Origin: Bacteroidales bacterium
Lineage (GTDB): Bacteria; Bacteroidota; Bacteroidia; Bacteroidales; JAFGUD01
NCBI GenBank assembly: GCA_016938685.1
Contig: JAFGUD010000262.1
Coordinates: 51-64,050, forward strand
Length of the DNA: 64,000 bases
Direction of reading: 5' to 3'
Shown one piece after another: positions 32,031 through 35,169 of this stretch (within the stretch, counting starts at the first letter, position 1; each line of letters opens with the position of its first letter). The translations under genes were made by a program, and so were the position numbers. Below the pieces are notes generated by a model, which saw only the letters and a list, made by a program, of their open reading frames with translations, had not been told where the DNA came from and did not search any database.

Positions 32031-32411
32031 TTATTCTTCAAAATATTTATCTAAATCTCTGCGGTCTTTTTTAGTTGGTCTGCCGGGTTTGTCTCTTTGA
32101 ATCTGTTTTGTTTGAAATTCGTAGTACATTTTCAATTTAAACAAATCTTCTTCTGTTGTAATTTCTTTAATGTATTCTTCTACAACTTTTGCGCCTACTC
32201 TTTTTTCTAAAAGCTGCTCAACTTTATAAACTCTGTATGTAACAGGCGTTTTAACAGAAATTTCATCGCCGACAACAACACTTCTTGATTGTTTTGCCAC
32301 AGTTTTGTTGACTAAAACAGAACCTTTAATACATGCAGCAGTAGCATCAGGACGTTTTTTAAATAGCCTAACTGCCCATAAAAATTTATCCAATCTAACT
32401 TTCTCTATCAT
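32031..32411 (-). CDS. hslR: S4-domain RNA-binding protein (Hsp15)
   Basis: RLDKFLWAVRLFK N-terminus and GRPTKKDRR C-terminus. Confidence 0.9.
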   Translation of the reverse strand: MIEKVRLDKFLWAVRLFKKRPDATAACIKGSVLVNKTVAKQSRSVVVGDEISVKTPVTYRVYKVEQLLEKRVGAKVVEEYIKEITTEEDLFKLKMYYEFQTKQIQRDKPGRPTKKDRRDLDKYFEE

Positions 32412-32971
32412 TTTATATTGTAAAAGTTCATTGTTCTTTCAATTCCGGTTGTAACAAATGAATTGATTGCATCAAAAATATGTTTTTTCCGGCTTTCTAT
32501 TTCTTTTCTTTCGTCTGCTGACCATTCTCCTAATACATAATCTATTTGCTCTCCCGGTCCAAATTCTTTGCCGATACCGAATCTTAACCTATTGAAATTT
32601 GAGTGCCCCAAAATTTCGGAAATATTTTTCAGACCATTATGTCCTCCATCACTTCCTTTTGTTCTAATTCTGACTTTCCCCAAGGGAATATTAATATCAT
32701 CAGTTAGAATTAAAACATTTTCTATTGGAATTTTTTCATTCTGCATCCAATATCTTAGAGCTTTTCCACTCAAATTCATATAGGTAGAAGGCTTTAAAAA
32801 AAAAACTTGTCTTCCTTTTATCTTTTTTTGTGCAATATCTCCGTATCGTTTGGTCTCAAAAATAATATTGGACGCTTCTACGTAGGCGTCCAATATTGTA
32901 AATCCGATATTGTGGCGGGTATTAGTGTACTCTGTTCCAATATTACCCAAACCAACTATCAAATATTTCAT
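32408..32971 (-). CDS. pth: Peptidyl-tRNA hydrolase
   Basis: LIVGLGN, TRHNIGF, KPSTYMNLSG, GGHNGLK, RLRFGIG. Confidence 0.97.
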   Translation of the reverse strand: MKYLIVGLGNIGTEYTNTRHNIGFTILDAYVEASNIIFETKRYGDIAQKKIKGRQVFFLKPSTYMNLSGKALRYWMQNEKIPIENVLILTDDINIPLGKVRIRTKGSDGGHNGLKNISEILGHSNFNRLRFGIGKEFGPGEQIDYVLGEWSADERKEIESRKKHIFDAINSFVTTGIERTMNFYNIK

Positions 32972-33069
32972 CTGTTTATTATTTTATTATTTAATATGTA
33001 CAGATGGAACTCCCATGATAATCATTTCTATGTGAGTAATAAAAAGTATCATGGTTGTTTCATAAAATA

Positions 33070-33684
33070 CTATTCTTCTGTTTTTTCTTCTGTTGTTTCG
33101 TCTTCTTCGTCAGATTCTGAATCAGCTTTACTCATTGCAGCACGAGTTAATTTAACCATAGCTACTACGTCACTTGCAGGCTCTAAGATTTCAATGTTTT
33201 CGTGTTTCATTTCTTTAATTTGCAAAGACTTACCAATAGTTAGGTTTGTTACATCTATTTCTAGTTGATCAGGAATGTTTTCCAAAGAAGCTTTTATATT
33301 GATATAATGTTTCATTTGGTATAGGTGTCCCCCAGCTTGTACTCCTTTTGCAAAACCAGTAAGAGTAACAGGTATAAACATTTTGACAGGTTTGTCTTCG
33401 CTAACTCTTAAAAAATCAACATGAAGGGTGTTATCTTTAACAGGGTGAAATTGAGCGTCTTTCTTGATGCAAGTATAAACTTCACCTTCTACATCTAAGT
33501 TAATAATATATACTTTGTTTGTGAAAATTACGTTTTTTAATTCTTTAACAGAAATAGCAAAAAGTACATTTTCTTTTTCGTTGCCGTATAAAACTCCGGG
33601 AACTAAGCCTTCTTTGCGAAGTATTTTGTTGTGTTTTTTGCCGGTTTCTACTCTTTTAGTTGCTTTTAAAGTAATTGTTTTCAT
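33070..33684 (-). CDS. rplY: 50S ribosomal protein bL25 / general stress protein Ctc
   Basis: LRKEGLVPGVLYG, QFHPV, HVDF, GVQAGG, acidic tail; lies upstream of pth. Confidence 0.95.
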   Translation of the reverse strand: MKTITLKATKRVETGKKHNKILRKEGLVPGVLYGNEKENVLFAISVKELKNVIFTNKVYIINLDVEGEVYTCIKKDAQFHPVKDNTLHVDFLRVSEDKPVKMFIPVTLTGFAKGVQAGGHLYQMKHYINIKASLENIPDQLEIDVTNLTIGKSLQIKEMKHENIEILEPASDVVAMVKLTRAAMSKADSESDEEDETTEEKTEE

Positions 33685-33698
33685 TTTAATAGATTTTT

Positions 33699-33742
33699 GT
33701 GCTACTCAAATCTGAAACATCTGTTTTAGATTCCCATCACAC
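33699..33742 (-). promoter_or_regulatory. Candidate rplY leader hairpin with a 5S rRNA loop E-like internal loop
   Basis: GUGU-GAUGGGA-AUCUAAAAA-type stem reading GUGU GAUGGGA AUCUAAAACAGAUGUUUCAGAU UUGAGUA GCAC, ending 14 nt before the AUG. Confidence 0.6.
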
Positions 33743-33760
33743 GTTAAACAAAATTGCGTG

Positions 33761-33768
33761 CAAAAATA
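33761..33768 (-). promoter_or_regulatory. Sigma-A -7 element (TATTTTTG) for rplY
   Basis: CAAAAATA on the plus strand is TAnnTTTG on the minus strand, just upstream of the leader hairpin. Confidence 0.6.
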
Positions 33769-33924
33769 GTAACTTTTATTTTAATTGCAATCATTTTGCT
33801 GTTTTTTATTTGTCAAAAAAGAACGTAATATTACTAAAGTTTTTGCACCTTTGGGAAAACAAATTATTATTGATAATTTTGAACAAGATTTTTGCAGTTA
33901 ATTGTGTAAATAATTTTATCTGAA

Positions 33925-35169
33925 ATGAAAAAACAAAAATTTCCATTATATCTTCAAATACTATTGGCGCTTATTTTAGGCGTATTATTTGGAATTTTTT
34001 TACCTGAAAAAGTGGAATATGTAAGTTGGATGGGTGAGATTTTCATGCGTGCCTTGAAAATGATAATTATACCGCTCATTTTAACTTCTATTATTTCCGG
34101 TGTGGCAAATATTGGTGGAACAGACAATCTAGGGAGACTTGGACTTAGAACTATCGGATACTATATGCTTACTAGTCTTTTGGCTATTGTTACAGGATTG
34201 TTTTTTGTTAATATTTTTAAACCTGGTGTTGGTTTTGATCTGAAATCTACCGAACCTATTCAGGATATTGCAGTTTCTGATAATCCGTTTATGGATACAC
34301 TGATGAATATTGTTCCAACTAATATTTTCCAGGCATTTAATGAAAGTAATATGCTTTCAATTATATTTTTTGCATTGCTTTTCGGTTTTTTTATTACTAC
34401 TATCAGAAAAGATTACAGCAAACTTTTGGTGGATTTTTTTAACGCTTCGTTTGAAGCTATGATGAAGCTTACTCAGTTTATTATTAAATTTACTCCTTTT
34501 GGTATTTTTGGAATTATTGCAAAAGTTGTTTCAGAGCAGGATAATTTAGGCGAATTAGCCGGAAGATTAGGAATTTACATGTTAGTTGTACTTGCCGGAT
34601 TGTTTTTTCATGCTTTTATTACTTTGCCTACACTTGTTCGTACTATTGGAAGGGTTAATCCTATCAAACATTTTAGATTAATGGTTTCTACGTTGTTAAC
34701 TGCCTTTTCAACTTCATCTTCAGGTGCAACTCTTTCTTTAACAATGGATACTGTTAAAAACAAAGTTGGAGTTTCAAATAAAATTGCAAGTTTTACTTTG
34801 CCTCTTGGTGCTACAATAAATATGGATGGAACTGCGCTTTATGAGTTGGTTGTGGCAATGTTTATTGCTCAGGCTTATGGAATAGAATTAACAATAACTC
34901 AGCAATTTATTGCTGTTTTTACAGCATTGCTCGCTTCTATTGGTGCGGCAGGAATTCCAATGGCTGGACTTGTTATGATTTCTGTTATCCTCTCTACGTT
35001 AGGATTACCGTTGGAAGGCTTAGGGTTGGTTATTGCCGTTGATAGAATTTTAGATATGTTCAGAACCGCTGTAAATGTATGGAGCGACAGTTGTGCTGCT
35101 GTTATTATTGCTAAAAAAGAAGGAGAAACTCTTTTGATTGAAAATGAGAAAACATTGAACAAAGTTTAA
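33925..35169 (+). CDS. Dicarboxylate/amino acid:cation symporter (DAACS, GltP-like)
   Basis: RALKMIIIPL, AFSTSSSGATL, PLGATINMDGTALY, DRILDMFRTAVNV. Confidence 0.95.
   Translation: MKKQKFPLYLQILLALILGVLFGIFLPEKVEYVSWMGEIFMRALKMIIIPLILTSIISGVANIGGTDNLGRLGLRTIGYYMLTSLLAIVTGLFFVNIFKPGVGFDLKSTEPIQDIAVSDNPFMDTLMNIVPTNIFQAFNESNMLSIIFFALLFGFFITTIRKDYSKLLVDFFNASFEAMMKLTQFIIKFTPFGIFGIIAKVVSEQDNLGELAGRLGIYMLVVLAGLFFHAFITLPTLVRTIGRVNPIKHFRLMVSTLLTAFSTSSSGATLSLTMDTVKNKVGVSNKIASFTLPLGATINMDGTALYELVVAMFIAQAYGIELTITQQFIAVFTALLASIGAAGIPMAGLVMISVILSTLGLPLEGLGLVIAVDRILDMFRTAVNVWSDSCAAVIIAKKEGETLLIENEKTLNKV

Follow-up and report, generated by a model that had tools for sequence, protein, structure and literature searches.

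The hairpin that precedes rplY, the gene of ribosomal protein bL25, in a Bacteroidales genome raises the question of whether this protein controls its own synthesis by binding an mRNA copy of its rRNA site. The window is the whole 64,000-nt stretch of DNA analyzed, in which the hairpin lies 14 nt upstream of the rplY start codon. In the preliminary description of this DNA, free bL25 was proposed to bind the hairpin by mimicry of loop E of 5S rRNA and to repress rplY together with the genes behind it. Conservation, covariation, likeness to 5S rRNA, a promoter-type box upstream of the hairpin, and the lack of an Rfam match all support this reading. The probability that the element is a cis-acting rplY leader through which bL25 represses its own translation by rRNA mimicry is put at roughly 0.7 on these comparative grounds. 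The features of the locus, in the direction of transcription, are as follows.

33761..33768, minus strand: predicted -7 promoter box TATTTTTG, a match to the TAnnTTTG-type consensus
33699..33742, minus strand: leader hairpin, made up of an outer stem, a loop-E-like internal loop, an inner stem, and a tetraloop
33739..33742, minus strand: 5' strand of the outer stem, GUGU, with 33699-33702 as its partner
33734..33738, minus strand: 5' strand of the internal loop, GAUGG, copying the 5' side of loop E in 5S rRNA
33723..33733, minus strand: 5' strand of the inner stem, 11 nt
33719..33722, minus strand: tetraloop AGAU, variable among relatives
33708..33718, minus strand: 3' strand of the inner stem, complementary with one A.C mismatch
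33703..33707, minus strand: 3' strand of the internal loop, GAGUA, copying the 3' side of loop E in 5S rRNA
33699..33702, minus strand: 3' strand of the outer stem, GCAC
33685..33698, minus strand: A/U-rich 14-nt spacer AAAAAUCUAUUAAA from hairpin to AUG, the presumed ribosome landing region, with no Shine-Dalgarno sequence
33070..33684, minus strand: rplY, encoding a two-domain bL25/Ctc of 204 aa (Pfam Ribosomal_L25p, 6.5e-25; Ribosomal_TL5_C, 3.4e-19)
32408..32971, minus strand: pth, encoding peptidyl-tRNA hydrolase, possibly cotranscribed (Pfam Pept_tRNA_hydro, 4.9e-63)
32031..32411, minus strand: gene of an S4-domain protein (hslR in the preliminary description), overlapping the pth stop codon (Pfam S4, 1e-07)

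The coordinates and letters of the hairpin proved to be those of the preliminary description, as did its placement between the -7 box and the rplY AUG. The symmetric 7x7 internal loop described there had to be revised to a noncanonical block of 5x5 in the window, since oppositions 6 and 7 (G.U and A-U) are standard pairs that extend the inner helix. Folded as a single sequence with RNAfold, the hairpin is unexceptional (-12.2 kcal/mol; z = -1.5; 15 of 200 shuffles equal or better), and the case against a chance origin therefore rests on comparative data. Covariance model R1, built from 22 relatives, found its sole match in the window at 33696-33745 (55.8 bits; E of 2e-10 for the 64-kb window) and a single match in the whole 4.75-Mb assembly. 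The 3' side of the hairpin is not followed by a T-run, and the minus strand of the window showed no terminator-like site, which argues that the hairpin is not an intrinsic terminator.

The best solved relatives of the rplY product are bL25 chains of ribosome structures, 9i5t_Y (4.7e-47) and 7jil_V (1.1e-35). The gene order behind rplY is widely shared: pth follows on the rplY strand in 105 of 109 loci, and the S4-domain gene was seen in 69 of the 109, the flanks of these loci being short. With such an arrangement, pth and the S4-domain gene could be subject to polar or coupled effects. The 98-nt rplY-pth spacer of the window contains an inverted repeat, CCATGATA ... TTATCATGG, at 33010-33052 on the minus strand, with no T-run after it, which could be a processing or termination signal of some type.

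The TATTTTTG box is separated from the start of the hairpin by 18 nt on the minus strand of the window. TAnnTTTG at -7 is given as the consensus of sigma-ABfr in the cited account (PMC7366714). The hairpin core was recovered by regular expression in 101 of 110 related loci, and a box of the TAnnTTTG form lies 6 to 80 nt (median, 28) upstream of it in 91 of these 101 leaders, so the hairpin should be transcribed. From the promoter box alone, we infer that transcription would start upstream of the hairpin. A sigma-70 promoter scan of the minus strand, a scan that does not cover Bacteroidota promoters, returned nothing. The spacing on the other side is tight: the hairpin ends 2 to 29 nt (median, 14) before the AUG, with a gap of just 2 to 6 nt in 25 of the 101 leaders and of 2 to 4 nt in many Prevotella-type loci. 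At the predicted start region, just past the -7 box, TTTGCACCGCTTTTT is shared by many rplY promoters of Bacteroidaceae and Prevotella (L040-L118), and its counterpart in the window is TTTGCACGCAATTTTG (33750-33764, minus strand). These stretches may represent a conserved initial transcribed sequence.

No 5S rRNA gene was found in the 555 contigs of the window's own assembly, and the 5S rRNAs of relatives were therefore used for comparison with the leader. In those of three genomes of the same order, the 5' side reads CCGAUGGUAC and the 3' side GGGAGAGUAGG, which gives GAUGGUA opposite GAGAGUA. The same two strands form loop E in the Escherichia coli fragment crystallized with L25 (PDB 1DFU), as listed in Table 1 of the source (PMC1920249). 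Of the seven oppositions of this set (G.A, A.U, U.G, G.A, G.G, U.A, and A.G), the window keeps the first five; the identity asserted from the E. coli loop is thus borne out against all three same-order 5S rRNAs. Judged by its letters, the window loop is a partial copy of 5S loop E. What the leader copies is the part of loop E proximal to helix V, and with respect to the closed hairpin end its strands run 5' to 3' as they do in 5S rRNA. The sequences of 5S helices IV and V are not reproduced in the leader, and models R1 and R2 gave no score to 5S rRNA loci. The oppositions found in 90 distinct leaders are given below under E. coli residue numbers, which we take to be 72-78 and 98-104 for loop E.

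G72.A104: G.A in 76 leaders, A.A in 14
A73.U103: A.U in 90
U74.G102: U.G in 90
G75.A101: G.A in 88, G.G in 2
G76.G100: G.G in 68, G.A in 15, G.U in 3, A.U in 3, U.U in 1
U77.A99: U.A in 13, C.A in 24 (the Bacteroidaceae and Prevotella type), otherwise mostly a standard pair
A78.G98: a standard pair in 88, A.C in 1, a gap in 1; A.G never kept

Read by strand, the 5' side of the loop in the same 90 leaders is R (G in 76, A in 14), A (90), U (90), G (90), and G (86), and the 3' side begins with G in 68, A in 15, or U in 7, followed by A in 88 and by GUA in every leader. The A.U and U.G oppositions never swap to other standard pairs while the adjoining helices covary, which points to a constraint beyond base pairing. 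This invariance indicates a putative shape-specific protein site, of which it would be expected, and beside the covarying helices it may be taken as indirect support for a non-Watson-Crick geometry like that of loop E, which includes cross-strand purine stacks and bound Mg2+.

The conservation of the leader was examined among orthologs. rplY was located in 39 of 41 related genomes, and the 160 nt upstream were inspected in the 30 loci returned. In 23 of the 30, the upstream region contains G-Y-G-Y, R-AUGG, a stem of varying sequence, R-AGUA (AGGUA in one), and R-C-R-C, followed by the AUG; the pattern is absent from the other seven (L011, L019, L020, L021, L025, L027, and L030). When 22 leaders were aligned with MAFFT (alignment A2) and scored against the two-helix structure, 92.7% of 219 cells were standard pairs, versus 24 to 52% with the 3' partner slid by 1 to 3 columns. 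Both sides were changed in 35 cells, with such changes in five of the six inner-stem pairs, and none of 500 shuffles reached the observed pairing percentage or covariation score. A larger alignment of 92 leaders, 90 of them distinct (A3), was fitted to the model and by construction leans towards the structure; for the 90, it gave 94.8% pairing and 86 cells changed on both sides, with 0 of 500 shuffles as good. The slid-partner controls of the two alignments together ranged from 23 to 58% paired.

The two helices differ in what is conserved. The first six pairs of the inner stem covary, and the segment within them ranges from 2 to 82 nt among relatives. The outer helix is paired at 97.7% in the 22 sequences and at 99.4% in the 90 distinct ones, where U-A is replaced by C-G in four, and its letters, GUGU/RCAC-A, are nearly invariant beyond what pairing requires, for which mimicry offers no explanation. 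Inner-stem insertions of 82 and 71 nt occur in L123 (G144) and L095, both of which retain the two loop strands and the outer stem and score 42.7 and 23.5 bits, respectively, with R1. Across the 22 and the 90 leaders, GAUGG/GAGUA is kept with covarying flanking stems, which is the pattern that the preliminary description had named as support for its proposal.

To establish the distribution of the element, R1 was run over 151 Bacteroidales genomes, approximately one per family, with a cutoff of E <= 0.01 and strict filters. A match was obtained in 71 genomes, exactly one in each; rplY was located in 147 of the 151. In total, 70 of the 71 matches are on the rplY contig and strand, 3 to 93 nt before the rplY start, with 64 of them at 3 to 32 nt. 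For the six at 85 to 93 nt, the rplY protein match starts only at profile position 38-39, and in one of these (G029) the true rplY start is 14 nt past the R1 match. The 71st match (G094) is at a contig end that overlaps the N-interrupted rplY upstream region of the same genome, and all 71 matches are thus rplY leaders. Because the large search used strict filters, the upstream regions of 75 of the 76 no-match genomes were searched again with the filters off, the 76th lying past a contig end. This yielded 11 further leaders on the rplY strand, for a total of 82 in 147 genomes. One match on the wrong strand, with an E of 0.21 (L142), was not counted. Among 80 further loci, the leader-bearing genera include Prevotella, Bacteroides, Phocaeicola, Dysgonomonas, Paludibacter, Saccharicrinis, Porphyromonas, and Tannerella, with others.

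No leader was found in 64 order-level representatives (loci L119-L193), the filters-off search included, which indicates that the element is dispensable. In 52 of these 64, the bL25 protein has a different N terminus, of the M..VS.SGS type, and 47 have no TAnnTTTG box within 120 nt. Many have rplY behind a gene that we call prs-like, a label that comes from no family match, with a short spacer, as in other orders of the class. From these gene neighborhoods, the leader may have arisen together with rplY's own promoter. A different neighborhood is seen in L125 (G086:C71:3565-3703), where a bL25-like gene with the unusual N terminus MKHQKIKVSL follows directly downstream of the 5S rRNA 3' end and a hairpin with a T-run; the contig ends there.

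Outside Bacteroidales, model R2 with strict filters matched no genome in two samples, one at class level (147 genomes) and one at phylum level (146). When the regions upstream of rplY were inspected at 28 loci from other orders of the class, one clear relative (L198, in G159) was found and the other 27 showed nothing, so the element is essentially a Bacteroidales one, present in about half of the sampled families. The L198 hairpin has GAUGG/GAGUA and a long inner stem and lies about 20 to 90 nt upstream of rplY; its outer stem is GUU/AAC in place of GUGU/RCAC, and it scores 13.9 bits with R2 in local mode. Either it is distantly related, or the same mimic has arisen independently. An R2 match of 17.8 bits in L214 falls inside a prs-like ORF and is missing the 3' loop strand, and it was judged to be due to chance.

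With the hairpin close to the AUG, no terminator, and no use of Shine-Dalgarno pairing, autogenous translational repression is the best-supported model. In the proposed sequence of events, bL25 in excess of free 5S rRNA would bind the loop E mimic in its own mRNA, the protein-locked hairpin near the AUG would deny the 30S subunit access to the A/U-rich start region, and translation of rplY would fall. By the size of the 30S footprint, a protein-stabilized hairpin so near the AUG would fall inside the 30S binding region. Exclusion of the subunit would be expected because the hairpin ends within 29 nt of the AUG in each of the 101 leaders and because the group initiates without Shine-Dalgarno pairing, which members of the phylum are stated not to use in the cited passages of two papers (PMC10931766 and PMC7797042). 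The steps that we infer from sequence are transcription through the hairpin, binding of bL25, repression, and any downstream effect on pth and the S4-domain gene. The E. coli rplY 5' untranslated region (UTR) hairpin serves as a precedent for self-repression by bL25. Should bL25 need the loop E positions next to helix IV or the helix sequences on either side, its affinity for the mimic may be low or nil.

When large subunits stall or split, the peptidyl-tRNA that they retain is acted on by Pth and by Hsp15-like S4 proteins. It is conceivable, if distinctly unlikely, that the loop E mimic gauges free bL25, and hence the supply of 5S rRNA and the assembly of large subunits, and so sets the level of the whole rplY-pth-S4 string, which would couple assembly to rescue.

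Among the alternatives to autogenous repression by bL25, a conserved rplY mRNA structure in which bL25 has no part has a small but real chance of being correct. The hairpin would then serve, for example, as a 5' stabilizer against RNases, as a place of processing, or as a target of another protein or a small RNA, and its likeness to loop E would reflect a recurrent, self-stabilizing RNA motif. Internal loops of the loop E type do recur in other RNAs, only 5 or 6 of the 7 loop E oppositions are kept, and the near-invariant outer stem, which 5S mimicry leaves unexplained, would suit a function of this kind. A generic stabilizer or protein site should be expected before other genes as well, but there is one element per genome and it stands solely before rplY; moreover, the letters under conservation match those of the bL25 site on 5S rRNA exactly.

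It is also conceivable, if quite improbable, that bL25 does bind the leader, with transcription or mRNA decay rather than initiation as its point of action, through Rho-dependent or other premature termination or through turnover, and thereby controls the rplY-pth-S4 string. A single control point for the whole string would make sense given the frequency with which pth follows rplY on the same strand and, in the window, the absence of a terminator-like site between the two. Against this, the element is followed by neither a T-run nor a second, alternative hairpin, and the tight spacing to the AUG is predicted by occlusion of the start site and needless for a transcriptional device.

Chance resemblance or a relic without present function, such as a decayed 5S fragment, could account for the weak single-sequence folding z-score and would find an echo in the rplY-like gene directly after a 5S gene in L125, but it is a very remote prospect, contradicted by covariation and one-per-genome placement; 82 family representatives keep the element, both of its stems show compensatory changes, its loop letters are invariant, and its inner helix and loop are unlike 5S helix IV or loop D.

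If autogenous repression by bL25 through the loop E mimic is correct, the leader would be the first operator for bL25 of the two-domain form, which is widespread. It would also stand out as an unusually clear example of rRNA mimicry, its conserved letters being those of the L25 binding site for which a structure has been solved. In the accounts cited here, bL25 autoregulation has so far been confined to enterobacteria, which have a short protein and an operator unlike 5S rRNA. The leader bears in addition on translational repression in a phylum that initiates without Shine-Dalgarno pairing. Since it is present in genetically tractable gut genera (Bacteroides, Prevotella, and Dysgonomonas), the proposal is directly testable. 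For practical use, the element would provide annotation libraries with a small, specific RNA family.

Ribosomal-protein leaders that imitate rRNA are a familiar class, with examples for L1, L10, L20, S8, and S15. Two features by which leaders of ribosomal proteins are recognized were found here, namely, a covarying conserved secondary structure and a 5' UTR position before a ribosomal-protein gene, the latter between the TAnnTTTG box and the rplY AUG with a start predicted from the box. The preliminary description allowed that the leader might already be in Rfam. No Rfam 15 match was obtained for the whole window at the gathering threshold, and for 33550-33950 at E <= 10 there was only noise, the best being SQ2397 with an E of 0.81, far under its cutoff. 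In full-text literature searches, no account of an L25 leader from Bacteroidota was found. In Table 1 of the ribosomal leader survey of Eckert and Weinberg (2020), Bacteroidia have leaders for L13 and S4, and the L25 leader is listed just for enterobacteria (PMC7247131). The rplY leader comes from the same class as the Bacteroidia L13 and S4 leaders and resembles them in having a conserved 5' UTR structure whose presumed ligand is the encoded protein, and it differs from them in gene and in structure as these are presented in that survey; for the Bacteroidia S4 motif, the relevant part of the survey gives no likeness to rRNA (PMC7247131).

The comparison with the enterobacterial L25 leader is the closest in gene. 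E. coli bL25 is described as repressing its own translation through a 5' UTR hairpin in competition with the 30S subunit (PMC4408793 and PMC10931766), and, going by the first of these, the two leaders share an rplY 5' UTR hairpin just upstream of the ribosome binding region. The enterobacterial hairpin "does not resemble" loop E in the wording of Aseev, Bylinkina, and Boni (2015; PMC4408793). According to the relevant passages of a 2024 review, its operator relies on a weak GAGA Shine-Dalgarno sequence, and the features of rplY autoregulation were found only in species with a short one-domain bL25 (PMC10931766). In contrast, the Bacteroidales protein has two domains, there is no Shine-Dalgarno sequence, and the loop copies loop E. 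By the features that define the enterobacterial leader, the window differs both in the missing Rfam match and in the spacer AAAAAUCUAUUAAA, which is without GAGA.

Compared with loop E of 5S rRNA itself (RF00001), the site of bL25, the leader has an identical GAUGG/GAGUA in a symmetric loop between two flanking helices in the same orientation. Unlike loop E, it keeps 5 (window) or 6 (Bacteroidaceae and Prevotella) of the 7 noncanonical oppositions, the rest being standard pairs on the side corresponding to helix IV, and its flanking helices are of other sequence. On this sequence comparison, the candidate rplY leader of Bacteroidales represents a new family of ribosomal leaders that has no structural relation to the L25 leader of enterobacteria and is built on the familiar principle of rRNA mimicry.
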